This document shows, in pieces, positions 37,201 to 58,207 of a stretch of 64,000 bases of DNA. Source of the DNA: Catajapyx aquilonaris (lineage: Eukaryota); the NCBI GenBank assembly GCA_000934665.2, contig KZ538447.1:1-64000 (forward strand). Reading direction: 5' to 3'. Under the pieces are notes generated by a model, which was given only the letters and a program-made list of their open reading frames with translations, ran no database searches and was not told the origin of the DNA. A program made the translations under genes and the position numbers. Position 1 is the stretch's first letter. The number at the start of each line of letters is the position of its first letter.

Positions 37201-40200
37201 TTTCATCCCGAGAAGCTTCCGCCTAACCTGATTTCCCGTGCCGATCCTCCATAATGCAAGGAATTTCATTTCGTTGCACCCACACTAGAGGCTTACTTTT
37301 CTAATTAAAATATCACGTTGCAACCATTAAGTTATTAATTACGGCCAAACGCGTGGTGCTCCGGGGGTTGAGAAAGACCTGCTTAGAAATTCGCTTTGTG
37401 TATCAAGTTGAGATGAATATTTAACTGCTTGCGGGGGGTAAGGGAACATATTGAAGGGGGGCACCCTCCTTTCCTCTCATCCCTCTGACCCCCTCCCTTC
37501 CCAAGAGCTCACGTCGTTTGTCAAATCTGATTACAATAGGATTTGCATAATTTAGGCTTAGGCTTTACAGGCCCCCAAGCAAACAGTATGAGAACTTGGT
37601 CAATCCGCCGCCCTAGTTCGGGGGGGGGGGGGGGGNGGGGGTTGGGTGCAGCCATTGTTTTCTACGGGATCATTGCTGGCGTGACATTTTTATTCTGGTA
37701 GCTCCTCCCCTTGAATTCGACAGTGGAAACAACGCACTAAAAAAGACCGCGTATAGATCTGATAATGGGTGGCACAATTTCCGGTAGTAAAATGCTGGGC
37801 GAGGAGAATGTCTGTATCGACACCATTCCTCAAAATGGAGATATTTTACGTCAATAGATGTTGTCAGGAAATGTCAGGGTTCAAGGAGCCTAATGGGAGA
37901 CATTATTCGAAGCAGTTCCTGGAGTGTATCGAATGTCAATACGTCAAAACGGGACATATGGTGGCCAACTTTAGCACTTGTATAGGTGAATGAAAATGTC
38001 CAGATACATAATGCATTTCAAGTGCTTGTCATTTATGTTCGACAATTTAAACCGCAGTCATGTAGTTTTTCAGAGTGTCACTGTATTATGTAGATTGTTG
38101 CAACCTTGGATGTCACTTCATCGGATTGATTTTGTTATAGCCTAAGCTCGGAGGAAAGAAGGAAAAAGGGTGGGAAGATAATCAGAAACGGCGAGGCCCA
38201 ATCTATTTTCGGAGATCTGAATGGTGAAGTCGATGGCCAAAGCGATAAGGGTAATCCATTTAAAAAGTAGGGAGAAAATAGCTTCCACCTCCTCCCCGGC
38301 ATGGTTCCAGTCGGGATAAGAGTGTTCGAAATAGAACTCTAGGTGGTTTAATTTATCACATGCTCTATTACTGACAAATAGGTAGAGTAAGGTAAAGTAC
38401 CAGTCTTCGTCTGTACCAATTTGAAAATGAATTGAATATTGTTTTTGCACCCATTTACCATGTGGATAAAAATGCATTCACTTCACAAATCTATATCGTA
38501 CTGTTTGTGGGGGTGATATTTCACAAGGATGTTGTAATTTGGATTGTTGTAGCTTACATGGAAAATATTATCAATATAACAACATCTACGGCAAATTCTG
38601 ATGTTTCCGCCGTTAGCATGCTCTAAAATTCTAAATCGATCGGAGAATAAATTCCCTCTCTGGCATTATTAGACACACTGCCCTAAAATGATGGAAAAAG
38701 TCGTCAAAACCTATACTTCTTTTTGATGATACATATTTTCTTGCGCCGTCATTTTGTAGGGCAACACAGGTTTGGGAATGCGAACAAAAGACAAAATTGA
38801 TCGGATGGAATTTTCAGTGCCTTTTCGTGCTGAACGTGACGTAATGTACGGTATATATCTGCACACGAGAACGTACCCATTGTTTTCCCCTGTTGCGACA
38901 TGAGTGAGCGACTTCAATGCCGGAAGATCATCTCTCCTGATAATTTTATCGCTGATTGCTACACTATTTCCAGTGTTATGACGTCACGTGTCTCTATTGA
39001 CAAGTGAATGAAACATTATTTTATCTTTGAGAAACAATAGGTATCAACTGGTCAGGCCCGCATGATAACGGTATCGAGGTAATATCATAATAACCAAATC
39101 GATATGAATATTGAGAAATCAATAAGTTATGGTTGATATTTTTACACTTTATGAGGGCGGTTTACAAAAAGATTGAAGGTTATAGTGTGATATTTGAACT
39201 ATAATTATTACAGCGCATTCTCCTTCTTTTCAGTGATTGGTGTGGATATGGGTAGGCGAAACAAGCAAGTGGACTTGATCGACGGACTGAATCTCCATAA
39301 CACAACATACCAAGGAGTGACCCTCGTTCCTGGGCTACATACTCTTACGCCTGCACTTTATCTCCAGGGTAAGGTGAACAATTTACCCCACTGCACTGGT
39401 AATAATTATTTTTCTGACAAGAAGTACTCAAAGCTTCAAAATACCGTAACCGCATTGTTCCACGTAAAATTATTGAAAAACTATGCGGGAATGATAGTAA
39501 ATGAAAACATGTTGTGATCATTCATAATCATTGTTCCGCATCAGTTGTTGCCAAAAATAAATGACAAGGGCAAATAAATAATTGCCAGTTACTGCTGACG
39601 ATCATGCAACCGGAGCGTTTCATGCATTATTTTACCCTTACAAATTCCAATTATTCATTGTGGGAATGATTTTCAATGAGGCAGAAAGCTAGGCCCGCTG
39701 CCAAATAGGACAGGTTGCGTACTCTGAATCGATTCCTGTGCAATACTCGGCCAACACGCTGATTAGTTGCAATCCTCTCACCAAAAATGTTCTCAACAGT
39801 AATTGTAATGAAAAAGTTCACATTTTGAACAAGGATAACCTCTGATGAATCTTCGTTGCATTTTTCATGAACGTGCCACATGCATATACTGGTACTTGGT
39901 ACTTTTTAAACTAATATATTGTTCATCTTCCGATCATTTCCAAAAAGGTTCCCAGCACATCCAATTAAAACGTCAGTAGATAATTACGGACTTCACACGA
40001 ATGAATCATTTAAGCATCGCGGATTTCCTTGCAATCTGAAACTTTGTTGAACTACTAAATCCAGGAGACTTTAGTTTCCCATTTGCCTGCCACAAGGAGC
40101 TTTCCGAATGGAACAGACTAACAGGTGTCCAGGAAGACAATACTTTATGCATCCACAAATTTAATCCATAATACATCAAGTTCTCTCTCTCTCTCTCTCC

Positions 40201-43200
40201 CCCCCCCCCCTCGATAAATGTGAGATGACTGATTTTGTCCAATAAATATAGAGGTTGTCTTTTTTTCTGCATTTCCCCTTTCTCGAAAATGATGGTCTCA
40301 ATATTGTCTATACACGACATCGGTTCGGAACGAGATGTCAAAAAGGAAGGATGAAAAATATCAACATTATAGCAACTGTTATAAATGACTTCTGTTTTTT
40401 TATATGGCGTCGTCATTAATCATAGCGGCTTGATTAAGAACTTGATTAAGAGGAGGCTTGATTAAGAGGATAATCTCGCACACAACTCAATAATTCTTCT
40501 TCAAGACGTACAGTACAACAATAATATTGTGATCCAGTACCTGGTATATAGATCATTACTAATAAATCATTTACGTAATCACAACTTCATGTATAGATAA
40601 ACTTGTGGTTTCAAATCATGTATTGCCTTTTGTTCCACATAATAATGTGATAACACAGCATCTTTGTTAGTTGATAGTCTTTTATTGCCCAAATTAGACG
40701 CACGCAAAGGTCATAATGAGCGCGTGCAACAATATCGTAAAGCATACTAATTTACTGCAGCATTTGAAATGACAATGTGGCACCGCATGTAAATTGCACC
40801 GGATAAAAAGTTTTTCTTCTGTAGAGCGATAATAATTGATTGGACATTTTTCCATTGCATTAAGATCCTCGTATAGTCACCACGAGATTACTTAAAACAT
40901 GGTCTGAACGATTATAAATTTGAAAGCACTGTACTTGCACTTAAAATATCAGCAATATTAGAGATGTCACGCAGTTTTACATTTCACGCTGCAAGATTAA
41001 CCATTAGTGTCTCGGAATTTTGAGACACGGCGAATTTTTAGAAATATTTGGGTAGAACTTGTCGTCGTGAACACGTGGTTTTGACAAAAATCGCACATGC
41101 ATTGGTTACACATTTAACGTAAATATCCTGAAAAAAGTATCCCTGGTATGGGGAATGGTGTGAAGCCAACAGCAAATTATTAAAATATCAGGCAAACTAG
41201 AGTCACAAAAAGACGCTTTGGAATCATCTTGATGATAACATGTGCTATTAACTTTTCATTCACAACTACATCATTTAACGATAGCTCCGAATATGTTCAT
41301 TGAGTAACCTTGCCCTCCTTAAGAGAAAAATCGATGGGCAAATTTCTTCCACTTAAACGTGATTTACGTCTTACAATATTTAATGAGTGAAGGTAATAAT
41401 TCAGCACTTTCATTCCCTCTGGACGCTGAAAATAAGCGCGCCTCACATGAACGGCTAGAGAATTTTTCGGTTGCCATGAGTAGCAAAAAGAATTTACAAA
41501 GATGTAAATCATCGTCAAGAACATGCAATTCTGCTGAGATATGACATTATGTGCATAAAAATACCGTCAGGCCTCTACGTGATTCAAGATTCCTTTTTTG
41601 TGTGTGGCGGCGAACCCTTGGTCAAAATCAGATGCCTCATGCGCACGTAAGAGGTTGCCTTGGAACAATGATCCTAGCTTTCGTGGAAAAGACGCCGATC
41701 TGTTGCGTTTAAAATTGCACGGAATCGGGCACGATGGCCTTCTTAATGGCTACTTCTTCAATGACTCATGCTTCTCCTTACTGATTTGACAAGTTCGGGT
41801 AATATTTTATACTCTATAACCTGGCCCAAAACACCGTTTTTGACGACGATAAAATAACCACTACTTACTAACCTAGTCACAAATACATGTACACAACCAA
41901 GAGGGACTCTGGTACAACATAATATACATCGTAAGAATCAAAATTCAAAATAAAAGGGTTGACGTCACGCAATTGAAAAAGATTAAATGCATAAAATTGT
42001 CAAAACTGAGCAACGTGTCAATGACCCTAAGAATTTATCCGAAGAACCACTTCAGTCATCAAGATAGTGTGACGTACGTCACCAACATTGCTTTTTGTAA
42101 ATGACAATTTCTCTCGAATGTAAGTTTAGGTATGCTATCCAAACACGTTGGATATAGCGTGCATGGGGATGAGTACAGTAGTAGCACAAATGAGTGGAGA
42201 GTGGAGAAACTTTCAGGCCTTTTATATACAGTGCTCGCTAATGGCGTAATGTCTGCCCTGGCCAAATGTGGAAAATTCCATCATTGTGCGCAATAAAAGG
42301 CGCCACTCCAGCTACACAAAAAATCAATGGCTACTGTTCCGACACGTGGTCTCACAGCAGGCTCCGTAAATGGGAAACACCTCAAAAGTTTTCTCCGAAA
42401 TGTTCCTATAGGGGGCAATGGATGAATCTCCAGAACCCACACTACCCCATTTTCCTTCCCTTCGGGGAAGGAGAGTTAGAACCTAATGGATGGAAGCAAA
42501 GTTACGGCGACTTTGGTAGTTAAAAGAGGTCGCAGACGTCAAAGTTGGAAGAATGAATCGCCTTCGATGACTGCGAACCAAACCTGTTTGTCTCCTTTTT
42601 CTGCGCTTGGCTTCCTCAGAAATAACGTACCGGCGACGTCTTTATGGTTTTCTTCGGCATTCCGAAGAATCTGACAGTCGATCGCGCACAAGATTATTCC
42701 TTCTATTTTTTCCCACAAAATGCTGTTCTTCCCTTCTTTTGCTATCTTTACGAAAATAAATGAGAAGTGCTAACGAAAACGTGTTGCATTCTTCTCTTTC
42801 AGGAGATTACCGCGAGTTGAAGATGCCCGAAGTGGTCTTTCAAAGGGTAGTTGAGTTATTGCAGCAGCACAACGAATTCACTGTGTTGGCCTTCGTACGG
42901 CAGGAAGATGCCAACTCGGGCAGCATAATCTCATTTTCACACGGGTACCATAGGTAAGTAAGAGATACGTTGTACTGTGCTGTACTGAATCACAGTGGTC
43001 CACAATACCCTGAAAATCTGCCCTTGTAACATTGTGTCAAAAAATTAGAGGTGTCTTTCTGGGGTATTGTGAACCATCACGCCAAGTCTGATTTTGTTGT
43101 CACATACCTGCTTATTTTCCTTGCAGGTATTTTGAGCTACAATCCAGTGGTCGTAAAGATGAAATTCGTCTCCACTATACTCATACAAATTCTGTTCGCG

Positions 43201-46200
43201 TCGAAACATTCCCTTACCGCCTTGCCAACAACAAGTGGCACAAGTTGGCCCTCTCTGTGAGTGGGAACCAAGTGGAATTGTACATAGACTGTCACAAAAT
43301 ATATCAACGGGTATTATGGACAATCGACAGGAATTTTACGATAGATGGTGGAAATTTATCACTGTGGGTAGGACAGCGCAACAACAAGCACTTTCTTTAT
43401 AAGGTAAGTCGCCTTTACGATCTCATTGGTTGATAAGTGACGGACCACGAAACTGCTTTACACGTTTTTTATTGGAATGGCCCTGCAAAGTATTGCGAAA
43501 AGACTTGCTCATATTAACCCTAACCAGTGCAAGGGTCGTCCAGGGAAATCAATGGACCTCTTCCGTTCAGTCTAAATTGGTGACCGTCAACATCCTACCT
43601 GAAGGTGCAGATTGCGTGTCAGAGGGCAAGCCCCTCTTGCCTCCTCCTCTTGCCTTCCCTTGTAACACGCGTTAGAGTCAGGCAATAAAAAGTCTTGAAG
43701 GACGATATGGCGCCCTTGCACTGGATCATACGCCCACACCTTTCCTCTACGCCGGACAAGTTCCCGGAATTTTGCTCTTTGCACTATCTTGTGAGGCCTT
43801 GTGCACTAAATTACAAGGAGAATAAGGTGAAGTGTTAGGTATGGATTTTTGCGAGACTTTTGAAACAACCTCCTGAAAGGTCAAAAGGGTGTTATTGTAT
43901 ACAGTACATGTTATAGGATGTCGGGTGAGAATTTTTAACTTGCCAGTTAATGGACTACAGATGAACTGCCAATGTTGATACCTGTTGTTTACCTGAGTGA
44001 TATAGGTAGGACTTCTAACATAAAGAATACCGTTCCACTCAATACTGAATACTACAGAACACCAAGTAAAAGCCCCAGTGATCTGGAAAGAGGTCTATTT
44101 AAATAGGCTGTTTGTGATGCTCACCTAATTTTCTGCCAATTTCATGTCGCAATCAGCGTTGGAATAATTGAAGTGTGGTGGCTTTGTTAGCACTATTTTA
44201 GTCATTCTGCCAAATCGATGGGCAAATTAGCAAAACTCAATCAGTTAGCATAAATTCATTATTATGAACTGTAACCTAATGTAAGGTGACGTTGGTTCAT
44301 TGGCATGCAATAATAATATGGAGCAATAAAAATTTGTGTTGGGCTGTCTGGGACATTACGTCTTACACTACACGTGTATCTGAACGAAGACTTCCCCTAT
44401 GATAAAATGAATAACTGTTAAAATGCTCTGTAATTGAAGACCTCGGGGGAAGAACGATCAAGGTTCACCTCAGGCGAAACTGAGATATTTCTATTTCAAA
44501 TTTCGAAGGCCCCTAAGGTTCCATTGTAAATCCCACTTTCGAGGTCTTTCATATAGTGACCTATGATCATTACTCCACAACCACTACCAATCATATTCTA
44601 CACTACTGAAAGTATCTTCCGAGATATGCAACTCATTTTTGACAAAAAGTGGACCATGATCGATCTTCCCACGAGGCCTTCAATTTTTTATCCCGATTCA
44701 TTCATCCTAAATCTAAATATTATGTATCGAAATGAAGACTGTTATTACCGGAGATATAATAAGCCATGAAAATTATTGACGCACTATTACCTTTCTCAAA
44801 GGCCTACTGAGAAATAATTATTTTAGAGGACTACATGGCCTAAATATAAAACACATAGATGGCGCATTAATTTTAGAGTTCGTATGATGTATGACTGCAA
44901 TTATTATAAGCAGTTACTTTTATTGGCCTTTTATGGAAGTATACTCATAAGTTATGCTCTAAAAGTCTAAAATATAAACTTTAAAACTAAAAGTATGTTA
45001 AATTCTGATGAACAATATAATTCTCAAGAGTCAAGAGAAAACTGCATGAAAAACACGGTTGCCAGAAGTTTAAAGTGAAATGGAAAGATTAATAACTATG
45101 TGCAAACAATGTGCAGTGTAAATGAGATCCCAAATCATGCTTCAAATTGAAAGAATAAACCACCACGATAGTTTGGCTTCATAGCAATTCTACTAATCAC
45201 CCCCTACATCAAGAACCACCACTATTTTGGCGTTTACGGTCTAATTAACTTTTATTCATCCCCGCTGGGTTTATGAATGCGGTGTTATTGCTACATGGGC
45301 CTCATTAGCGGTCATTTGTTTCCCTGCCTCGCGTTAGTTATTAAAATCGTTCAAACATTAAGATGAGGTAGAATCACTGACCCCCCTAGCAGTATATCCC
45401 GCTATTTTATTATCTTTAAGTAGCTACCTTTGTTTAGTAGTATAGAGAAAGGTCAGTTCAATATAATTATAATGACTTGATTCTGCTCGTGATTGTTGTC
45501 TACCATTGATTATTATAAACGATCCCGCAGTGTGAGGCGGTACCGGTCCTATCGTGTGGTGTCTGGAAGTGGCTTAGCAATTGTGCAAATTTTATTTTTG
45601 GCTCGATTTAGTCTGGGCCTGGGGGTGATTTATATATGCATGTTAACGATTACAGGGCACTCTGCAGGAAGTGAAGATCGTGGCTGGAACCAACGGCTAC
45701 TTGGAACAGTGCCCGCAGTTAGATTCGACATGTCCAACCTGCGGGGAATTCACTGTGCTGCAGGCCACGGTAACGCAGCTGCAGCGTCATGTCCTTGAAC
45801 TCACTGCCAGGGTATGAATTATGCTTCATTTTTTTGTTTGCATTGTAAGGGTCAGTTTGTTACTACTTTTAGCCAGTACACCTTATGCGTTATTCAGCTG
45901 ACAGGCAGCTCTGATTGCGATTCTTGCCATGGCACCGTCTTGCCCCAGAATTCTTAGGATTCTATCGGTTGTCGTGTGCAAGGAGCTTGTTAACTCTCTT
46001 CCCACATTCCATGTCAGTTGCACATCATTGGAAAATCCTATATCCAGCATAGGCTGGCATAAACAGACATTCAATTACGAATGATCGAGAGGGGAAGCTC
46101 ATCGGTGAATAAATTTTAAATCCACCTTTTTTAAAGATTTTTTCATGTAAAAATTGCTTTTTTCATCCGAGTACCGTAATAGCATTATCATTCTTTTACA

Positions 46201-49200
46201 AGCTAGGGATAGTTCGACAATCTTAGGATGATAATGATAGGAGCCTATCAATGAACACTCGATCAATGCAAAAGCGACTTGTAATGCTGTTTTATTATAC
46301 AGTAAGTTATATTCATATGGAAGTAACTCCTAATTTTTTTTAAATGATACATTTTGTACTTGTGCAATTTTGTGCAACTCATCCGATGTACAAACAGTCA
46401 GATATAGATATTAAAATCGTAATAAAGCTGCCGAAACTCTTCACTGAAATGTTTCTGAATAACGTGTGGTTCATAACTTCCGTGAAACATCAATGTTTGA
46501 TATTTAACTACATGAAAAATATAGTGGAACTTCCCATTTGATTTCATTATACAGTTATGAGTGACGTGTGATATTACTGTATAAGTATTCCTGTGCATAA
46601 AACTCTCACATGTACCGGACTGAAAGTTACTTACTCATTGTGATGCCTTCAATTTTATTTGTTGCAGCTTCAAGAAGCCGAAACTCGAATTAATAAAGTC
46701 GAAGAATGTGATTGTCAACGTTCCTGTCGAGTAAATGGTTCCGTGCATGCGGATGGTGCCACGTGGCAAGAAGGGTGTGAAATTTGTGCATGTGTGGTAA
46801 GTCAATTTACTACTCATCGATACGGTTTTGAAAAGTGTAGACTTCAAACCCCTTTTCTGGGAGTAGTGTGACTGCTCTAGTAGAAAATTTACTTGATCAA
46901 TATGACATAACCATCCAGGAGTATGTGCCACTGTGTTTAAGTTTATTTTTACCAAAAAAGCGACATTGATAGATGTGATTTTCAGGTTTTCACTTAGTTT
47001 TGAATATGAAATTGTTCGGAAGGCTTTTTGACCATGTTAGAGACGTAAATGGATCCGGAAAGTTTGCCCCGAATGCCCGAAACTACACAAACACCACGAA
47101 TACCACCATAATCTTTCTCACAGCTGCTTATCGTGGATCCAACAGTGGAAGTTCTTTGTTAGGAAACAATTTGAATGAACTTCATTAGACGTAGACTTTC
47201 GAAACTCCTGCAAGTTTTGTTAGGTATAGGCCCCTCTTGCTCTTGCAATATTTGCAAGGCCAGACCCTGGAAACTTTGCTAGAGACCTCGAAACCGTGGC
47301 TCATTTTAAAAAGTTAAGCTCGAGTTACAACTTCCTTGTGGGGGCTCTAAAGGAATATACCGGTACTATTTTTTTGATTATTTTACTACGGGGTATCGAC
47401 CGGCATAGAAAAGCATGCAGCCTTACAAACTATACACTTTGCCCCTTATCACGACACCTACACACCATTAATCTATTTTATCCTTGCGGCAAAGGGCTGA
47501 TTCAAATCGTGCACTTATTTTCAGACGGGCGAGATCAAGTGTCGGCCAATTCAGTGTCCAAAAATCACGTGTAAAAACCCGGTGTATGCTCCTAACGAAT
47601 GCTGCCCTACATGCCTTAGTAAGTACACATCTGACATGACCTTTCGCATTTCCTACTTGTCCTCAAGCAAGCGTGTGTTTGGCTAATTTGTCTTTTTCCC
47701 CACCCTGCAGTGCAGTGCTACCTTCGGGGTGTGTTGTACGACCATGGTGTATCGGTGAGCCCTCGACAATGTGTGGTCTGCGAATGTTTCAACGGTTCCA
47801 TGAGATGCCGGCATATCGACCCCGAGACCATGTGTCCTCCATTACCATGTCCTATAGAGCAACAATTTAGCATTGCTGGTGAATGCTGCAAGTTTTGTCC
47901 AGGTACGGATGAAAACGATTGCCAAAATACTTATGCTATTATTAATTGGTCCATCACATAAACATTACCTGTTATGTAGTACTCTTACATTAAAGTAATT
48001 CAGCTTGTCAAAAAAAAGATAGTGTAATTCAGTCAGGTGCTACTCTCCGCAAATATCGTCGGACAATTCGTTACAATATGAACTTAACCCACTTTTGCAA
48101 CCATACTCATTCTCTACTCATCAGTCTTCCATCACTAGCAAAATTAATAATATTTATGAAGTAATTAATTTCTTTTCCCAAAAATATGACCCCAGGAGGG
48201 AAGAATGTACGCCTATTCACTTGAACTGGGTTGGCGATCATAACCTTACATTCTCTCCGCTCCTCAACAGGTGTAGATTACTGCGCCAAGGGCCACACGT
48301 GTCACGCAAACGCGTCGTGTCTTAACCTACAAACAACCTATGCATGTCAGTGCATCAGCGGATTCCAAGGAGATGGTCACTTATGCCACGGTAAGCCCAC
48401 TTTTTCATTGTGCTCCCAGACGACGAATAAAATGTGTCGTGCATTTTTTTATATTTCTTTCTCTGGTGCTAGACATCGACGAATGTCAAGAGAAAGGAGG
48501 CCTGGACGGACATCACTGCAACAGCAATACTCGTTGTGTAAATAGTCCAGGATCTTATGTGTGCGAGTGCCTTCCGGGATATCGCCGTCTGGACAAGTTC
48601 AACTGCGTGGAGCACGATGAATGCAGCACCGGCGACCATGCATGTGACGACCACGCTCGCTGCCTCAACACCCAGGGCAGTTACAGTTGCCAGTGCCTGC
48701 CCGGATATGTTGGCGACGGCTACACCTGCAAACGTGAGTCACACCGTTTCATCCCACCTATTGTAATTGTGTCCTTCTTGTGTGTCAAACTGTCTCCATT
48801 CGTCTTCTTGACTACACCCTGCAACTGTCATTTGTCGAAGTTCTTCCTAGTTTGATCGTTCTTCGAAAGCACTAAAATGCTATTGTAATGTGTCTATTAC
48901 CTGGCGTCATATAGCATCACATATAACATAAATGACACTCATGCATCGTCCCATGCTAGGCCTACAATATTTCATTTGCAAATATTGCCGGTCTCTTTGA
49001 TAGGCTCTATAAGTTAATTCTGCCGGGTGGATCACATTTTTTGTTTTTGAGTGACAGAAGGAATTAATTTATATTTAATTTTGCCCCAACCCATAATGAA
49101 ATCACATATCTTATGCATTCGCTCTTCTTCAAGTTTTTTTTCTCATGGTATGTACAGTAATGCCTAATGGAATGTTTTTGAAACTCAGTACGGTATTTTA

Positions 49201-52200
49201 GTGATATCCACATTTTTGTTTGAGTTTAGGGGCTACAATAACGGAGAAGTTGACTGATACCACTGAGTTTTGTAGGAAACGAACAAACTTATTATACTGA
49301 TACGAATAGCGAATCATCTCTCTGAAGCATACACCTTATATTGCATCTGATTTTGTAACTTAGAACCTATATGTATACTGGGCGATTTGGAAAATATGTA
49401 AAGGGAAAGTGCAGTCTGCAAGTACATTGTTCCACGATTATTTTTTGCTCTCTTCCTCAGCTTCAAAAGTCTAGCGGAAAAGCAGTCTAATAAATTACTC
49501 TATACGAGAAAACTCCACTTCAGGAAATGACCCAAAAACAGACAAAATGAAGTTCGTGAAAACTGCAGGCTACCTTTGAACGATTTCGTCTCAGAATATC
49601 CTCCATTGATTTGCCCCAGCGTCCTTGCAAGTACGGCTTAACACATTTAACCACCTCTAAAACTTCATCATCACTCGGCTAAGCAGGTAAACAGCTGGGG
49701 AAAGTCTAGTCCGGAATTAACTGGAGGAAAACTCCCAGCCGAAGCGGTCCTCATATTTTCATTAGCATGGAATCCCTCCTCTTAATTAGACCCAAGTGGC
49801 AAGCTAGGACCTACGCAAATGAGGAATCGCGGGTGTAATGTGCAGGACAGGTCAGGCTCTGGTCTAGCTCCCCCTCCAACTCCATAGAGGGTCTTTATCG
49901 TTTAGAATCAGCGGGAAGCATTATTCATCTCTCTCTCGCTCGCCGGGTTACAGGGGGGATAGTCCTATCGGTTTTCGTGATGGGCCAGGTTGGTACCGGC
50001 CGGCAGTAAATTCAGGTGGAAAGAACAGCTTCCGTTTTAGGAGGGCTGTTGATCTTTCCCGTCATGCAAGTCACGGACCAATGCATACCCTCATGCTATA
50101 TACCACCTGCATTCCAAACGCTATCGGCATCTAATCTCACACCATAAATGGAATAATGTAGTCTGGTTTTTGTACACATTTGGACATGTAATGCCAGAGA
50201 AACAAACACTTTACATGAAATTGCTTTTCTATGCACCTTCTTGGTGTGCTTTCCCCTGTAACACGTAACTGCAGATACCAACTTTGATTAGAGTGTTACT
50301 TTTATGCTATGTGTTGAAGACACGTCGAAGAGGGAACTTCTGAGCCTCAGAGAATCACTTTATGTAGAGATGTTATTTGGTCTCCAAAGCCTAGTTACAA
50401 AAATGATTAGCATTAATTAAAATGCAAATATCACTCCCTGCAACAAAGAGACAGTCTCGTCCATTGGCTAGGCGATTCCCCACTACGTATCACATGGAAA
50501 TGCATTTTAAATATGTTACAAATTTACAATTCGTAGTAACACTTACAATGCACTGCATCTGTTACAGTATTGTATTTAAAATGGTAGATCGCACGGAGGG
50601 ATGCTTACCTCCCAGGATATTATGGCTAGTATTTGAAGCTATTTAGCTCGGTAATGAGGCCGTGAAGACCAAATGCCATACCTACATCTGGTTTTCAGGA
50701 GTTCATCATAGATGTTTTAAATACATTAAACTTTAACATCTTATTGAAACGCCATAAAATTGGAGGAAGACTAACTTGTCCTGAATTTGCCTTAAACACT
50801 TACTGGACAGGTTCAATCGGGTTCAATGCGCTACCACAATCAGCTACGTTAGTCACAAACTAATTATATGCTCCAGGAAACGTTAACTGAGTTTTACTTA
50901 TGAGATCAGTAGTTGTGCTCAATATGCCACTGGGTTCCTTACAAGTATCCATCATAATGAAGCATGGCCATAAAATATTCAATAGCGTTTCACATCATGG
51001 GTGGTCGAAAGTGATAGATTACTCTCATGCTATGTAAATCATTTGCTTCTACATTTATCCTTGAAGTCCTGCAGTTTTCAGTAATGGTAAACCCAGTTTT
51101 TTACTAGACTTGGTAATCCATCATTTGGATCCTTTTGAAAATCGCATCCTTTACTTGCAAATGAGCAAAATATCTGGCATGTACTCACCTTTTCTCGATG
51201 GATGTAGGCAGACTCATATACGTAGAAAATAGCTTTGCCAGGTGAGTCAAAACAGCTTCAAGAATCTAGAGCAGTTCAGTGACTTGACCTCTCTGCTGCT
51301 GGTCAGCCTTCGCTATCCATCGCCTAAGTAAAAGTGGAGAGAGTCAGGTCAGTGTTAGATTGTTTTTGACTACTGGTTTATATAGGCTGTTACTTCAATC
51401 GAAATTAACAACGTCATTTACAAATCATATGCAGTTGATTGTATGGGACCAAATCCACAACAATAATTGAACATGATACCTATTCATATCTTTGTTGCAT
51501 GCACTTCTTCTCGGTCTCTTTAGCTTATGCATGTTGTGTGTATAGTAGATGTCATTTTTATTTGTGTGCTTCCCACAAGCTTTTCATACACGGCCATTAC
51601 AAGTAACACAAAAGATTACTCAAAGTTATCATAATAAAATTTTAAAAAAATACCACCATTTCTAACATGTAGCCTTGAAAGAAGCAACAAGACCGTAAAT
51701 TGCATTCTAAAATTTTCATCCGCAAAAATTTTAAGGGGCCTGGACGGGAATCGGATATTGCTCCTAATCACTCTGCTGCCATACTAACATTGAATCATAT
51801 AAATCCTCGTTTTGCCCAAGCTCAGAGACTTTCTTGGAAAAAAAAACTCTTCCTGACTTTTACAGAAGTTGCTTCTTGATAGACAAGAGAGTTGTTGCGA
51901 CGGGCGCTCGAAAGGCCGCTAGGTGGTGACAACCCGCCCTTCAGCGGATTGCAGAGGGAAAAGAGGCTCCCGTCAGGTCATCAATCTTGGAAGCGGATAG
52001 TAGCCCCACATTTACGCTGACGAGGTATGAGAAACTTTAGCAACTCCAATACCTTGTAGCGTCTTTGCCATCAATAAGAGAGATATATAAAAAAGACTTC
52101 GATACAAAGGCGACAGTGTTTCTTTTATGTACCTACCTTCGGCTCCTCGTGTGAACGCTTGACGCTTTTGCACTTTGATTTTTTACTTAGACTTTCAGTT

Positions 52201-55200
52201 GCGGTTCTTATTTTGCATTGTATCGCTTTTCAAAGTCTCGTTAGCATTTTTATGTGCAGTTTTCCTTTAGCTCACAGTAGCTTAGAAATTCGGACATTAG
52301 CTAGCACTTGTCGTATTGCACGTTCAGCAAAATCCCTCTTGCATGAATAACGTAGCCATGGATTTGATAGTGTTTTTTAAAGTCTGGGATATTCTTTTCA
52401 ACCGCGCTGAATCCAGCAGACGTTATCTTAAATCAGACTTGACTTTCATAACTTTTCAGAGCAAATAAATCAAACTGTATCTAGGTCATTTAAACAGTAA
52501 CTTTTACGAGCAGGCCATTACCATATAAACCTACAAGTCATGAATCAGACCCCTGTCCTGACAATTAACATGACCCTTGACTCAGTTCAGAAAGCACTGT
52601 GCATTCCACGTTATTCTCAATGCAGAAGAGCGAATGCATAAGACTATTTAAATTGCTTTTTATTACTGCACAGCGTCAAAGTTTGCATCCATCTCAAATC
52701 CCTAGTGGTCAGTGGACAAAGACATTTGGAAAGAAGGCGGAATTTCTTGCCTTCCAAGAAAGTCAACTATTGTAAACGTGGATGAAAGTAATAAATGACC
52801 ACGAAACCTAATAATTATTTTCCAGCCGTGTGTAACCAAACCTGCCTGAACGGTGGGGAATGCGTGTCACCTGGTGAGTGTAAGTGCAAAAAGGGCTACG
52901 TCGGGCCCAGCTGTGAATTGGACATGGATGAATGTGCCTTGGGTCTCCACCAATGCCACCCCAATGCTGACTGTGTCAACATGCCGGGGTGGTATTACTG
53001 CCAGTGCAAGTCTGGATTCCGCAGCATCATGCAAGACCACACTGTAGGAGCCATTTGCCAAGGTAACAAATCTCCCCCTTGAGTATATCCACGAGGATGT
53101 TAACCCGACTCCATTTGTCCCTACAGATATAGACGAGTGTGCGGAAGAAATTCACACCTGCCACCACTCTGCACTATGCAAAAACGCCCAGGGAAGCTAC
53201 GAGTGTGTCTGCCCCCCTGGGCAAGACGACTGTTCCCGCGGTAGGTACTTAGCAAAGAGCAACGTTAATGTAGAGCACTAACTTTGCTGGGTTTATCCTT
53301 TAAAGTAAACAGTTGAAACTTCAGGCAATGCAAATAGGTAACCTCAATTCCAGATTGTGTGTTCCAAGGCCTGGAGTTCCGGAATCATGACGTCTGGGAA
53401 GACCACAGCAAACCCTGCTCTCAGTGCTCATGCACGGAGGGCACAGTCACATGCAAAGAAATGACCTGCAATTGTCACGACCCAAAGGTCAGTCTGGACT
53501 GCTGCCCGCAATGCGACATGACCTCGGTGTGTCCGCATCAGGAGGTGCCCCGAGTGACCTTCAAGAACGGCGAGCAGTGGATATATCAGTGCCAGACATG
53601 TGAATGTTTGGTAAGGACCTCGACCTACGAGATGGTCTAAAATTGCCAGAAAAAAATCCACACTCGTAACTACAATACCATTCTTTCCCAGCACGGAGAA
53701 ATTGACTGCTGGCCCATGGAATGTCCTCCGGTGGTGTGTCGCGATCCAGTCCTGCTACCGGGGGACTGCTGCCCCCGTTGCCTGGATGACCCCTGTGGCA
53801 TGGACCACAACGTGACCGGGGACGGAGCCAGCAACGGCAGGCCATGTACATACCTCGGAAGGTTGCATGCCAGTGGCAGCCAATGGGAATTGCCTCAGGA
53901 TAAGTGCACAAGCTGCAAGTGCCGAGTAAGTCCCCCTCTTGCCCTGCATCCCACCTCCGATATGTCACCCCCCATCCCATCTTTTTCCATCAACTCGGCT
54001 GTTTTGTCCTTCTTTTTTTGTCTCTCGGAGATGTCAACTACTGCAGGCCCAGCTGCCACTAACGCTGCCCGCGCCATTCCAGTCCAATCCATTCGACTTG
54101 CAATATTTTGATATGGCATGGACCATTTTTCTTGTCGTTTTTCCCCATTTGTTTACCCCTAGGCTGGCTCTATAGATTTCCCCCCCTCAACTCTTAGCAG
54201 TGCAACTGCAATGCGAAACAAACATTAAAGCCGACGTGTCAACCTCGTTTTTTCCATGCCTTTGTTTTAACGAGCTTAGAACTGCTGGTAATAGACTGCT
54301 TCCGAGATTAAAGTAAATGGTTGCTTTGAAAACAATTCCAAACGCCCCCCTGATTTGTTTTCATTGGCATGCCGTCTTACGTTTTTAGGGTAGAGTGACT
54401 CAAAAAAGAATCCTTTGAACACTGCTTGTCTGCCTGGATTTTGTTCTTTCCGATTACTTTAATTGCCTGGTCCAATTAACTACTCCAAACATTCGTTGCA
54501 TTTTGTGAATTGCTAACCAGTGTAGGCAAAAGTAACCTCTCTTTTTAAGTTGTTGACAAACGAGTTGTGTTGTTTGCTTTGTGACTAAACAAGAGTCGTT
54601 AGGAGGGCTGCTTTTGACTAACAATTTGGTAACACAAACTTCTTTTGCAGGTGCCGATCTGCGATCAACTGGTGAGCAATCTCGCGTGTTGTGTGCATCG
54701 GTAATCACGAAATAACTCTCTAGCTATCAATGAAAACACTTGGAAATAGGGACTGTTTTGTAGATAGCATGCATGAAATTGCACTGTCTTGTACCTGGAG
54801 TTTCCTAAGGTATTTCTTATACGGGTCGTCAGGGAATATTGTGTAATGAATGATTTCCTCTCGCCATTTCTGTCTTCTCAGAAGGTGGGATAAAACAAGT
54901 CCCAAACGAGACGCGTAGTGCGAAGTTATTACCTCGTGGGCGCAACAGTAAAACTTGAGGGTTCTTTCAGAGTGCAATGAAATGGGGGAAATAACGTCCT
55001 CAGCCCAGAGATACTACTGACTTGCTCTCCACGCCCAAGTAAATTGCTAGCTCGTCAGCACAGTCACCATTTCCTGGGAGAGACCACCCAGCCAAAGCCG
55101 ATAGCTCTTGTTGAACCTCGGCAGCTTCACATTCCGCGCTATGTAATTATTGTTTCCTAAATATATAGCTGGCGAAGCTTAGGAAAAGAGCGCTTGTCAA

Positions 55201-57163
55201 GCAAGCGATTAGTCTGTCAGGAGAAAGAGTTGTGGCGTAAACATCGGCTACAGTGTTTAGGCAGATAGGAGTTAGCACGGAAGTGCTCGTCGTCTTTTGG
55301 CGGCGGATCAGTCGACTTGTCAATACGTTTGAGGCCACCATGGTCGCGGCCAACACTGCTCCAGTGCAGTCAAAACACGCCGTATAATGCTGGCATTTAT
55401 AGCGAGTTAAGCGTCGCGCTGAGGTAAATAACCGTAATTCACGATTACATGGTTAACTTGTTGGCATCAACATTGCCTGCAAACAAAGTGTCATTAGAAG
55501 GGCTCGGAAGAAAAAGTCAGGATATTTCGGGAGTTGTGCAAAACAATGCTGTAAAATTGACTGGCGATATTGGTGTATTGTCAAGTAGCCTATATATAAC
55601 TGCGGACACAACTCGAGGTATGCGGTGGGAACTCTAGCCTGACTGTCTGTCTGTCTCTCTCTGGCATGTCCGTTTCATCACTTTTGGCATGTCAGGGCTG
55701 CAAACGAGAGGCACTTATGAAGCAATAACAGCTTGGCATATCCTCTCTCTTTTCATAAAACAAATGCTGATGTTTCTTGGGATGGCACCGTGTGTTTTGT
55801 GGCTTGTTCCATTTTCTCCCGAATGCACCATCACTCTTGTTATACAGTAGTTGATAGTACTATTTCTCCTTTTTCACTACCACATCTACTCACTTCTTGC
55901 TTTACACATCACGCGTGGATGAGGAGCACCACTTGCACCTTACACCTTCTTTGGTGTTATCTCATGGCCATTTTCAATTCTGTTTCAGAAGGATATTACC
56001 ACGAGTAACTGACTTGTCTCATGGGTGAGAAGATTTGAGGTGCTCTAAAGCGGTACACAGCCCTGTGCTGGGCTGTGCCAAACCAGGAGCTAAATATAAA
56101 AATTTCTCATTGTTTTGCTGCTCGTATACAAAAATTATTAAAACTTTTCTGGTGTCATACGCTCAGCGGAAGGTAAAAAGGGCCCTTTGCCAATACCTCT
56201 CTCGTTCTTTTACCACCTGATGGGGATGACGGTGATGATGCAGCTAGTGTAGTCTTTACGTGCGGGATTTTTTTCTTCCCAATTTTGGATGCGCCGATAC
56301 CTCCAATTCCTGGTGTGTGGAGGCATTTACAGGGATGTCGACAGAACCCAGGGAAATACTCGAAGGAAACCCGTGGAAAAGGCAAAGACAGACCATATCA
56401 TGCAGGGGATGTGGCATTGCAAATTTTTGTCATGGTGGTGCGATTCAGTGACCAAATCATTTCAAATCGCAACAGTTGACAGTAATATTGAATGCTTTTT
56501 TTCGAGGGGAGATTGACTTAACTGATCCGCTTCACTGAATCCAGCCACTTGCCAAATCTTGATATTGGAATAAGCGAGCAAGCATCACAGTACCTGTAAA
56601 TGCGCCCCCATTTAACTCTTGGTCACCAGGATGCCTGGCATGCTAGTGTCCTCGAGTTAAACAGTGCTACATTTTCAATTTCAGTGCCTCCAGCTGGCAG
56701 AATTTAGATTGAGCCTTATAGTAGGGTGAATGTAGCTTAGCTTGCGCAGAGGCCGAAATGTGCGGACGCAACCGCAAAGGAGTTGCTCTTTTCTCCTCCA
56801 TTGCAGGATGGACGCCTTTGCTGCAGTGTCGCTGTCGATTGCTATAATGCTGATGGCGCGGATGACCATAACGGAGGCGATCGAGCTGTTGACTTCCGGC
56901 CTGTACTTGGGAGTCCAGTGCTGCCGGGAGCTGCTCCTGTCCAGGTTGAGGATGACACTTCTTCACCCTCTGGAGCCACTGCTACCATCGACATCGATGA
57001 CGACGACCAAGATACTACCACTGTCGCCGAGCATTCCACCAGCACTTCCAGCAGTGGCAGTGAGGTGTCAAAGAACCATCAAACCCCCAAGTACTTGTCC
57101 CAGCAGCGGCAAGACAGTCCCAGTCTTGTCCCTATCCAGCAGACTGCCATTCCCGACAGGTAG
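13208..57163 (+). CDS. NELL: NELL-family secreted protein (NELL1/NELL2-like): signal peptide, LamG/TSPN, coiled coil, 2 VWC, 6 EGF, 3 VWC; about 928 aa
   Basis: 15 GT-AG exons, all phases consistent, total 2787 nt: 13208-13280, 39234-39368, 42803-42953, 43127-43403, 45656-45811, 46668-46796, 47525-47618, 47711-47902, 48271-48390, 48473-48733, 52826-53062, 53127-53240, 53354-53610, 53692-53925, 56807-57163. NELL hallmarks YFELQSSGRKDEIRLHY and QCPQLDSTCPTCGEF. Confidence 0.93.
19872..19979. other. Assembly gap (N run) between poly-G and poly-C tracts
   Basis: 108 N; smaller N runs at 7026, 13855 and 37636 also sit in G/C homopolymers. Confidence 0.98.
21373..21953. repeat. Long degenerate palindrome in NELL intron 1
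   Basis: Core arms 21617-21639 and 21689-21711 (23 bp, 2 G-U) plus several nested outer inverted blocks; outer limits approximate. Confidence 0.7.
39234..39368 (+). CDS. NELL: NELL exon 2
   Basis: ttcttttcAG|VIGVDMGRRNKQVDLIDGLNLHNTTYQGVTLVPGLHTLTPALYLQ|GTAAGG. Confidence 0.9.
42803..42953 (+). CDS. NELL: NELL exon 3 (LamG/TSPN)
   Basis: GDYRELKMP...EFTVLAFVRQEDANSGSIISFSHGYH; donor GTAAGT. Confidence 0.93.
43127..43403 (+). CDS. NELL: NELL exon 4 (LamG/TSPN)
   Basis: RYFELQSSGRKDEIRLHY...WHKLALSVSGNQVELYIDC...LWVGQRNNKHFLYK. Confidence 0.95.
45656..45811 (+). CDS. NELL: NELL exon 5 (LamG end, coiled coil start)
   Basis: GTLQEVKIVAGTNGYLEQCPQLDSTCPTCGEF...LTAR. Confidence 0.93.
46668..46796 (+). 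CDS. NELL: NELL exon 6 (coiled coil end, VWC1)
   Basis: LQEAETRINKVEECDCQRSCRVNGSVHADGATWQEGCEICACV. Confidence 0.93.
47525..47618 (+). CDS. NELL: NELL exon 7 (VWC1 end)
   Basis: TGEIKCRPIQCPKITCKNPVYAPNECCPTCL. Confidence 0.92.
47711..47902 (+). CDS. NELL: NELL exon 8 (VWC2)
   Basis: QCYLRGVLYDHG...CVVCECFNGSMRC...GECCKFCP. Confidence 0.93.
48271..48390 (+). CDS. NELL: NELL exon 9 (EGF1)
   Basis: GVDYCAKGHTCHANASCLNLQTTYACQCISGFQGDGHLCH. Confidence 0.94.
48473..48733 (+). CDS. NELL: NELL exon 10 (calcium-binding EGF2-3)
   Basis: DIDECQEKGGLDGHHC...EHDECSTGDHAC...GYVGDGYTCK. Confidence 0.95.
52826..53062 (+). CDS. NELL: NELL exon 11 (EGF4-5)
   Basis: PVCNQTCLNGGECVSPGECKC...DMDECALGLHQC...CVNMPGWYYCQC. 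Confidence 0.95.
53127..53240 (+). CDS. NELL: NELL exon 12 (EGF6)
   Basis: DIDECAEEIHTCHHSALCKNAQGSYECVCPPGQDDCSR. Confidence 0.93.
53354..53610 (+). CDS. NELL: NELL exon 13 (VWC3, VWC4 start)
   Basis: DCVFQGLEFRNHDVW...CCPQCD...GEQWIYQCQTCECL. Confidence 0.94.
53692..53925 (+). CDS. NELL: NELL exon 14 (VWC4 end, VWC5 start)
   Basis: HGEIDCWPMECPP...GDCCPRCLDDPC...DKCTSCKCR|GTAAGT, phase 0. Confidence 0.94.
54651..54671 (+). CDS. NELL: Candidate NELL cassette microexon (VPICDQL); alternative donor at 54700 gives a 50-nt form
   Basis: TGACTAAC branch point at 54615, ttcttttgcAG acceptor, CTG|GTGAGC donor, TGCATG at 54770. Confidence 0.6.
56807..57163 (+). CDS. NELL: NELL last coding exon (VWC5 end plus acidic S/T-rich tail)
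   Basis: ttttctcctccattgcAG|DGRLCCSVAVDC...IPDR-TAG. Confidence 0.85.
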   Translation, partial: DGRLCCSVAVDCYNADGADDHNGGDRAVDFRPVLGSPVLPGAAPVQVEDDTSSPSGATATIDIDDDDQDTTTVAEHSTSTSSSGSEVSKNHQTPKYLSQQRQDSPSLVPIQQTAIPDR

Positions 57164-58172
57164 AAGTTGGCAGTTCGGAACAAGCGTGGCGGTGGTGACG
57201 GTGGTCGCGGCGGTAGTGGTGGTGACCACGGTGCACAAGTTCTGTTCCTCCCCATCCTCCTCCTCCTCATCTTCCTACTCATCACCATGGTCGTCAACTT
57301 TGTTGCCATCGTCGTCAATGTCATGGCTCCAAGTTCTTAGACTGCTGCTGCTCGGCCTCCTACCACTTCTTTCCTACCACATCATTCCTTGTTTAGTGAT
57401 GCAACGTTGCCTACAAGCATGTCTACTCTTCCTACTCCGAGTGGTGGGCAAAGTCAAGAGGTAACCTCGCGAGAGGAAGGAATGAGCAATTCTAGTCAAG
57501 AGAAAAATTAATTAGATGACTGTGGAGCGAGAGTGATCGAGTGTGTGCTAAGGTTCTATAACTGTACGTGTGAGACAGCGTGGGATACAGTCGTCGCGGT
57601 CCCTCGTGGATGACTGCACCGCGTGCATGAAGAAAAGAAGACTGAACACTTAGTTTTACAGGTCAATAATAGAGTTAAAAGTATGTGTGAGTGTGTCTCC
57701 GCGAATGAGAGTGAGAGAGAAAGAGAATGAACGAGAGTGTGTGAGAAAGAGAGCATCAACCTGAAAAGTGGTCGAGAACATACGATGCATGTGTTGAGAA
57801 GTCATCATTCCTCGGTTGGATATCGCTTTGCGTGACCAAAGTACTCTTTGCACTTGACTCTATAAATAATACATAAATATGTAAGAGAGAGAAAAAGGAA
57901 AATCCAGTCAATGAAGAAAGCTAATTTCTCACCCCTGGCATTTTCGAGCGAGCGCTGCGTTATCTTTACAGGCACTTAATTTGGTGAGGCTGCCACATGT
58001 CTGTGTACGGTATAGTTGTTTATAAACAACTGTGCAGTGTCTTCCTTGGTGTTCAAGAAATTAATATTGCATTGGAAAACGAAACGTGTTCTCCACCATC
58101 GCAATACTGTGACGAAGGCGATTGTTTCCGAAGCAAATGCATACTGTTATGACAATACAGTTTCATAGCTGA

Positions 58173-58207
58173 AATAAAATTATCATGCGACGCTAATCAG
58201 CAATAAA
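58173..58207 (+). terminator. Candidate NELL polyadenylation signals
   Basis: AATAAA at 58173 and 58202, about 1 kb after the stop, followed by T-rich sequence. Confidence 0.35.

Follow-up and report, generated by a model that had tools for sequence, protein, structure and literature searches.

The window analysed here, 64,000 nucleotides (nt) of Catajapyx aquilonaris (assembly GCA_000934665.2, contig KZ538447.1, positions 1 to 64,000), carries on its plus strand the 3' part of a NELL-type gene, the last exon of which can probably be read in two frames depending on how a very small exon ahead of it is spliced. When searched with tblastn, Blattodea NELL1 matches window exons from 39209 to 53925 that are collinear with residues 9–805 of protein P0004, and these collinear exons for LamG/TSPN, VWC and calcium-binding EGF repeats correspond to those of known NELLs (Pfam domains were assigned on the NELL proteins of the relatives). 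The order of domains in vertebrate NELL1 and NELL2, namely LamG, VWC, EGF repeats and VWC, is the same as that in the window gene and its relatives, and in the vertebrate proteins, as here, a ..G(R)..CC..C motif closes the last VWC. The penultimate constitutive exon (53692–53925) encodes a VWC domain with 62–66% amino acid (aa) identity to cockroach and termite NELL1; it ends in phase 0 with ..CKCR at a gtaagt donor, and RNA joints depart from 53925. The start of the last exon completes the last VWC, with DGRLCCSVAVDC at 56807 and DGRLCCNYDFRC as its Blattodea counterpart.

Between these two exons, all on the plus strand, lies a cassette with two donors. The conserved end of the preceding intron (54612–54650) comprises an ACTAAC-type branch region, a pyrimidine tract and a ..TGCAG acceptor, with ACTAACAA..GGTAACAC common to the window and to locus L003 of a relative. 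After ttttgcag comes a 21-nt alternative micro-exon (54651–54671; VPICDQL) that preserves the frame and ends at a first donor, CTG|GTGAGC. A 29-nt extension (54672–54700; ..VSNLACCVH plus CG) would turn this micro-exon into a frame-shifting 50-nt exon (54651–54700) through use of a second donor, GTAATCACG (54701–54709; TCG|GTAATC after 54700), and conservation ceases a few bases beyond. The 50-nt exon leaves 2 nt that together with G56807 make CGG (Arg), followed by ATG GAC.. of the +1 frame, and it would substitute its own C and CC for the last CC..C of the VWC. An earlier note on this DNA, made from the letters alone, had proposed this second donor, the 50-nt exon and its exact entry into the +1 frame, and we find both the coordinates and the arithmetic to be correct.

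The frame-0 coding part of the last exon (56807–57163), which follows attgcag, encodes the VWC end and then a 106-aa acidic, hydrophilic tail (grand average of hydropathy, GRAVY, −0.68; 20 D+E vs 7 K+R) that runs to a TAG at 57161–57163. The +1 reading frame is open, as claimed, for 218 codons plus TAA (56808–57464); it ends in ..GKVKR, and taken from stop to stop it spans 56736–57464, or 242 codons. The next longest stop-to-stop open reading frames (ORFs) in the window, of 214 and 213 aa, lie in non-coding DNA. Past the frame-0 stop the +1 ORF includes GGT-type and TCC-type trinucleotide runs (57189–57285), with repeat family D1 at 57189–57231, and the 3' untranslated part of the exon follows at 57465–58192.

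RNA evidence was taken from the assembled contigs of two public runs, run X1 (a metatranscriptome) and run X2, both of which cover the 3' untranslated part. Two splice forms that enter the last exon in frame 0 are present in RNA. In particular, a 79-nt contig of run X1 with zero mismatches carries the joints 53925>54651 and 54671>56807 (depth 13.5), and a second contig of this run skips the cassette through the joint 53925>56807 (depth 21.9), which establishes the cassette as a genuine alternative exon, as had been suspected. All eight of the eight contigs of run X2 match at 99% or more, some spliced and some intronic, and because this run has no contigs between 53635 and 54756 it is uninformative on the cassette. 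Its spliced contigs around 53125–53353 confirm the gene model upstream of the cassette: they show a small exon at 53125–53239/40 and then a 113-nt intron ending at 53353 (53240–53353), and a loose end links 53125 to the preceding EGF exon. The joint 54700>56807, by which the earlier note had the +1 frame entered, is absent from the contigs of run X1, the sole run that covers the junctions; since contigs drop rare variants, its absence means that the 50-nt form was at most a minor form in that sample. A candidate donor at 57159|57160 (CAG|GTAGAA) was dropped, the RNA contigs of both runs reading straight across it.

Of the mRNA forms that would enter the last exon in different frames, the window RNA has only those with frame-0 joints, and the shifted form is present in computational gene models of four other species. 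A protein search with the VWC exon yielded 7 proteins from 26 candidates and a search with the Cryptotermes +1 tail yielded 3 hits from 2767, to which a cluster look-up was added. Of the 25 proteins examined, 5 skip the cassette, 7 include its 21-nt form ahead of DGRLCC (the cassette reading VPYCAQL in 7 Blattodea isoforms) and 5 have the 50-nt form, in which ..CNCK is followed by VPYCAQLVSNIACCV(Q/H)R and then MDV(F/S)AA... The models with the 50-nt form are from Cryptotermes (P0002), Periplaneta americana (X3, XP_069703335.1), Zootermopsis nevadensis (X4 and X6, XP_021913980.1 and XP_021913982.1) and Timema cristinae (P0009), and the extension is translated in P0002, P0008, P0009, P0022 and P0023. 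In Cryptotermes secundus B7P43_G01573 (P0002), for example, ..CNCK is followed by VPYCAQLVSNIACCVQR and then by MDVFAAI.. for 200 residues. The models of Cryptotermes, Zootermopsis and Periplaneta each include the skip form, the 21-nt form and the 50-nt form, the last of these with a +1 tail of 189–200 aa, at the same place as the cassette of the window, with a 17-residue insert that is nearly that of the window (VP.C.QLVSN.ACCV.R) and is followed by MD.FAA.. The proposed 50-nt exon with its +1 tail is thus the architecture of these three sets of models and, in part, of that of Timema. In these three Blattodea, reading the main-tail DNA in the +1 frame gives exactly the alternative tail (191–202 codons reconstructed, 4–6 of them ambiguous). 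Isoform X5 of Cryptotermes secundus (P0017) has a fourth ending, in which an alternative terminal exon of 10 residues comes after the 21-nt cassette; searches for an ending of this type in the window and in the loci of relatives gave chance-level matches only.

The second donor is also conserved in genomic DNA of relatives. A metagenome scan provided 9 genomic loci of relatives, all of which end short of the last exon and only three of which reach the cassette: the termite-like L003, and L008 and L009 of a third lineage, with 57% aa identity to the window in the VWC exon. The block made up of the cassette, the extension and donor 2 (59–60 nt) shows 87–95% pairwise identity between the window, L003 and L008/L009, as against 59–64% nt identity for the adjoining VWC exon across the same lineages, and the cassette acceptor is kept in four of four aligned sequences. 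Within the extension, 27 of the 29 nt are identical in each pair of window, L003 and L008, and 26 of the 29 columns are invariant. The extension and donor are near-invariant in the DNA of three distant lineages. The three variable positions of the extension are all non-synonymous, with 0 synonymous changes in its 9 codons, and the constraint is therefore partly at the level of the RNA. (In another termite-like locus, L006, the 3' end of the VWC exon occurs once more, as a partial copy with the same donor, at 2755–2857, ~1.4 kb downstream of the full exon.)

The 21-nt exon resembles neuronal micro-exons, which have conserved flanking introns and depend on SRRM4/eMIC, in being 21 nt long, frame-preserving, alternative and strongly conserved in its flanks, and a UGC stands directly before the acceptor in both the window and L008. 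A conserved out-of-phase donor 29 nt downstream, as found here, is unusual for such exons. The micro-exon and its extension can be folded into a hairpin whose apical loop holds donor 1 and in which donor 2 pairs with the start of the exon (window 54648–54708; L003 11704–11765; L008 9995–10055), and this hairpin may help to set the choice of donor. Its energy in the window is −22.6 kcal/mol, and against shuffles it scores z = −2.5 in the window, −1.9 in L003 and −0.13 in L008; two-sided changes are seen in 1 of 19 pairs. With L008 no better than shuffles and almost no covariation, the hairpin was rejected as the sole cause of the conserved block.

These findings raise the possibility that the extension and its GT serve as an RNA splicing element for the 21-nt exon (a decoy U1 site or a hairpin), in which case the +1 ORF would be a by-product of composition and the +1 models would be artefacts. 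A lack of synonymous change in the extension over three lineages fits a nucleotide-level constraint better than a protein-level one, the hairpin scores of the window and L003 point the same way, and the missing 54700>56807 contig is as expected. Composition offers further support for such an account, as a hydrophilic tail with codons ending in T or C is poor in +1 stops. In the window, the +1 frame is open over the 118 codons that overlap frame 0 in 12% of codon shuffles and in 31% of synonymous permutations. For the 99 codons from 57164 to 57461, dinucleotide shuffles leave the given frame open in 8.5% of cases and any frame in 25%. The joint chance of the openness seen in the window is ~1–3%, a level that is notable, not extreme, for a reader scanning 64 kb. 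In Cryptotermes, 27 of the 27 codons at risk of a +1 stop end in T or C, and the probability of an open frame is 0.029–0.036 (by synonymous permutation or codon shuffle). Both frames are nonetheless open beyond composition in the window and in three Blattodea, and the phase of the second donor is exactly that which opens the sole long alternative frame. The same frame is open in four lineages, and on the tree of the three Blattodea species 0 substitutions that create a +1 stop are seen where 4.56 are expected (P = 0.0105, an optimistic value, as models with an open frame were what led to these species). The near absence of covariation and the L008 score also speak against an account that leans on the hairpin.

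A comparison of the two products of the same nucleotides is suggestive of constraint on the second frame. In Blattodea the +1 tails are 68–76% identical and the main tails 65–67% identical, with the +1 value at least as high as the main one in three of three species pairs, a result that a by-product of composition would not lead one to expect. On the three-species tree, 129 single changes are split 51/34/44 over positions 1/2/3 of the main frame, a distribution without the excess at position 3 that an ordinary coding region would show. When transitions are corrected for (kappa 3.6), changes silent in the +1 frame are 1.45 times as frequent as those that alter both frames, with p = 0.046, a modest value from one small region in three related species; changes silent in the main frame are, with the same correction, 1.20 times as frequent (p = 0.24). 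A twofold effect suggested by uncorrected pairwise counts was discarded, having shrunk to 1.45-fold and 1.2-fold after the transition correction. For conservation of the +1 frame, a check listed in the earlier note, the signal in Blattodea is suggestive and comes from a small region and few taxa.

Past the end of the VWC, similarity between the window and Blattodea is kept in the second frame only. A profile of the +1 tails matches residues 1–44 of the window +1 frame (8.7 bits), whereas a profile of the main tails matches the window only at residues 1–14, that is, at the end of the VWC (0.6 bits). Over codons 15–45, the +1 score of the window against Blattodea is reached by 27 of 2000 composition-preserving shuffles and the frame-0 score by 1712 of 2000, which supports the view that, at the level of sequence, similarity has been retained in the +1 frame and not in frame 0. 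Taken together with the tail identities, the phase of the donor and the absence of stops, this similarity leads us to regard it as unlikely that the +1 ORF is a compositional by-product of a splicing element.

Past the first ~45 residues, which resemble the Blattodea +1 tails, the window +1 tail cannot be aligned with the NELL1 tails of Blattodea, and there a different account has to be weighed, in which the isoform is real in Blattodea and in the window only its beginning matters, or it has decayed, so that 57164–57464 would be untranslated, repeat-derived sequence left open by chance. The shuffles cited above for this part, its GGT/TCC-type runs, the missing junction contig and the Timema model, which stays in the +1 frame for only ~41 residues, are all in keeping with such decay. 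The caveat in the earlier note, that trinucleotide runs of this kind yield Val/Leu stretches in shifted frames by chance, was well placed: the Val/Leu stretches of the 3' half lie within such runs. On the other hand, the +1 tail of the window is close in length to those of Blattodea (218 aa and 189–200 aa, respectively) and ends similarly (..GKVKR and ..CK(S/N)VK(R)), and the cassette, extension and donor are intact. The two genes do differ in how the frames end: the +1 stop of the window comes 301 nt after the frame-0 stop, and in Blattodea the main tail outlasts the +1 tail by 29–38 residues.

A diverged contig of run X1 (959 nt, ~93% identical, beginning exactly at 56807) bears on the same question. 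It contains two unalignable stretches that differ in length from the window by 63 nt (221 vs 158) and by 21 nt (190 vs 169), the region of runs at 57189–57285 being replaced by a stretch 21 nt longer, and the listed insertions or deletions of a length not divisible by 3 begin only at 57503, past the +1 stop at 57464; such a pattern argues against a decayed frame. The substitutions are divided. The first four (56879–56907) all alter frame 0, and in the +1 frame two are silent and two conservative; the other 6 of the 10 listed in the +1 ORF fit frame 0 better (four silent in frame 0, two silent in +1), and two of the three listed in 57358–57464 are radical in the +1 frame (C>Y and G>D), as decay would have it. 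These numbers are too small to decide. With the length, ending and indel pattern of the tail set against the loss of similarity past ~45 residues, we regard decay in the window as improbable. The diverged contig belongs to a second set, ~90–95% identical and with large replaced stretches, that run X1 holds beside exact contigs on 53898–54530 and 56807–58191, and that could derive from a divergent haplotype or from a close relative. One contig of this set extends past the exon into intron sequence at 53926, and the run X1 library includes some DNA or pre-mRNA.

The stop-poor DNA past 57163 invites a further explanation. From 56807 to 57509 (234 codons) frame 0 contains only two stops, both TAG (57161 and 57341), and its continuation from 57164 to 57509 reads as a Gly-rich linker with a 30-residue hydrophobic run; this stretch could be the remnant of a longer tail, a product of read-through or mere trinucleotide runs. 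The main tails of Blattodea are about twice as long (218–236 aa, vs 118 aa in the window), and two of the three substitutions listed in 57358–57464 are silent in frame 0, as would be expected if frame 0 had once continued, or still continued by read-through, with the +1 frame merely riding along. The count of substitutions is just three, however, read-through of two stops would be needed, and a profile search found no likeness of the continuation to the main tails of Blattodea. Such an origin would also leave the conserved second donor unexplained, and we consider it very improbable. Four stop-free antisense frames of 78–104 aa, one with an acidic run opposite the TCC stretch, are present on the minus strand of 56667–57336; they are consistent with a generally stop-poor composition, not with an antisense gene. 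Elsewhere in the window, an assembly gap (an N run between G/C homopolymers) and a long A/T-rich simple repeat are found at 19.8–20.0 kb and 60.9–61.3 kb.

The earlier note had further proposed that splice choice toggles NELL between a secreted and a membrane-embedded form. The relatives' models with the 50-nt exon and +1 tail agree with the first half of this proposal, that there is an alternative form, but its membrane part rests on hydropathy, with borderline scores. The +1 tails are basic (K+R 18–28, D+E 5–8) and rich in Leu, Met and Val, and hydrophobic stretches are present in the +1 frame as described; they are, however, derived from composition, as well as, in the 3' half, from trinucleotide runs. 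Indeed, the GRAVY of the window +1 frame is 0.55 and that of codon shuffles 0.46 on average (standard deviation 0.07), and since main-frame codon shuffles reproduce the hydrophobicity in the window and in the three insects, we discarded it as support for the +1 frame. Kyte–Doolittle peaks over 19 residues reach 1.9–2.3 in the window and 2.1–2.7 in Blattodea. By a rough estimate of insertion energy, the best 19-mer is borderline, with +0.9 kcal/mol for the window and −1.0 to −2.0 kcal/mol for Blattodea, and the conserved first segment of the +1 tail scores +1.5 to +1.9 kcal/mol. Membrane anchoring of the +1 form is, on these predictions, no more than a reasonable guess. No usable hit came from searching the Atlas with the +1 tail of Periplaneta.

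We propose that the last exon of this arthropod NELL gene is read in two frames and that the frame is set by splicing of the tiny exon before it. When this exon is skipped, or included in its 21-nt form (54651–54671), the last exon would be read in frame 0 to give the usual secreted NELL, in which DGRLCC..C completes the VWC and an acidic, disordered tail comes after it. Use of the second donor, 29 nt further on (after 54700), would produce the 50-nt exon, put VPICDQLVSNLACCVHR in place of the VWC end and shift the ribosome into the +1 frame, adding a basic, hydrophobic tail of ~200 residues of which the first ~45 are the conserved part. The 50-nt form would then be made and translated in the window species, and its tail may keep the protein at the membrane or otherwise alter its localisation. 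What is directly seen is two frame-0 splice forms in RNA, an open +1 frame, a conserved second donor and three forms in the models of relatives.

Several points weigh against reading the last exon in this way. The joint that would enter the +1 frame is missing from run X1. The Blattodea and Timema isoforms are computational models, and the model of one species can seed that of another through protein alignment; that of Timema reads like the main tail after its ~41 residues in the +1 frame, so the long +1 ORF may not be universal. In the window, 100 codons past the frame-0 stop sit in GGT/TCC-type runs in which frame 0 is nearly open too. A search of 1.84 billion representatives with the window +1 peptide gave 0 hits at E ≤ 0.001, and Pfam gave no match over the cut-off (the best, DUF7772, scores 13.8 bits vs 25). 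To these may be added the modest p for selection, the optimistic P for stops, the later substitutions of the diverged contig, the borderline insertion energies and a hydrophobicity that is no evidence by itself. The NCBI pipeline is not known to add variants without transcript support. The +1-tail RefSeq isoforms of the cockroach and the termites are probably not artefacts. On balance, we give a probability of roughly 0.62 to the explanation that the window has a dual-coding last exon whose frame is chosen by neighbouring donors, and it is probable that this gene family has conserved a frame switch driven by splicing. More tentatively, the NELL exon could be an ancient dual-coding exon of ~200 codons, shared by lineages with 57–66% aa identity in their VWC, with a +1 tail that tethers the protein to the membrane or to the producing cell. 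On this view the constraint on the second frame would be no weaker than that on the main tail, which is disordered and may in part be a passenger; we hold this wider picture to be possible but doubtful.

Vertebrate NELL1 and NELL2 are secreted ligands of Robo3 and others. Vertebrate NELLs stop shortly after the last VWC and are not known to carry a long tail, so that no space is left there for a second frame. The invertebrate members of this family of axon-guidance-type ligands are described as unstudied in PMC10084454. Among the papers listed by our literature search on NELL with insects, termites, splicing, transmembrane or alternative reading frames, none describes the frame switch; isoforms with it are already present, unremarked, in the RefSeq models of relatives.

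Exons that are dual-coding through frame-shifting splicing are known in animals, where likewise one exon is read in two frames according to an upstream splice choice; CDKN2A (p16INK4a/ARF) and GNAS (XLas/ALEX) are examples of dual coding. The switch in the window differs from known cases in that it would be a 29-nt donor shift of a 21-nt micro-exon, with an overlap of ~200 codons, in the gene for an arthropod extracellular ligand. A survey of human genes reports more than 100 dual-coding cases with constraint in both frames (bioRxiv 10.64898/2026.05.28.727796), and this preprint, which has 0 occurrences of NELL, cites Kovacs et al. 2010 on a disordered product in one frame as typical of dual coding. 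Animal nuclear genes seldom contain long overlaps translated in two frames, and for most of those proposed there is no evidence of constraint on the second frame; here, an overlap of ~200 codons is apparently conserved over distant arthropod lineages, in an axon-guidance-type ligand. If the second product is made, splicing would determine whether NELL is freely secreted or ends in a hydrophobic C-terminus of quite another kind, and the switch would provide both an entry point to the function of invertebrate NELLs and a natural case on which to test models of how sequences evolve when two codes overlap.

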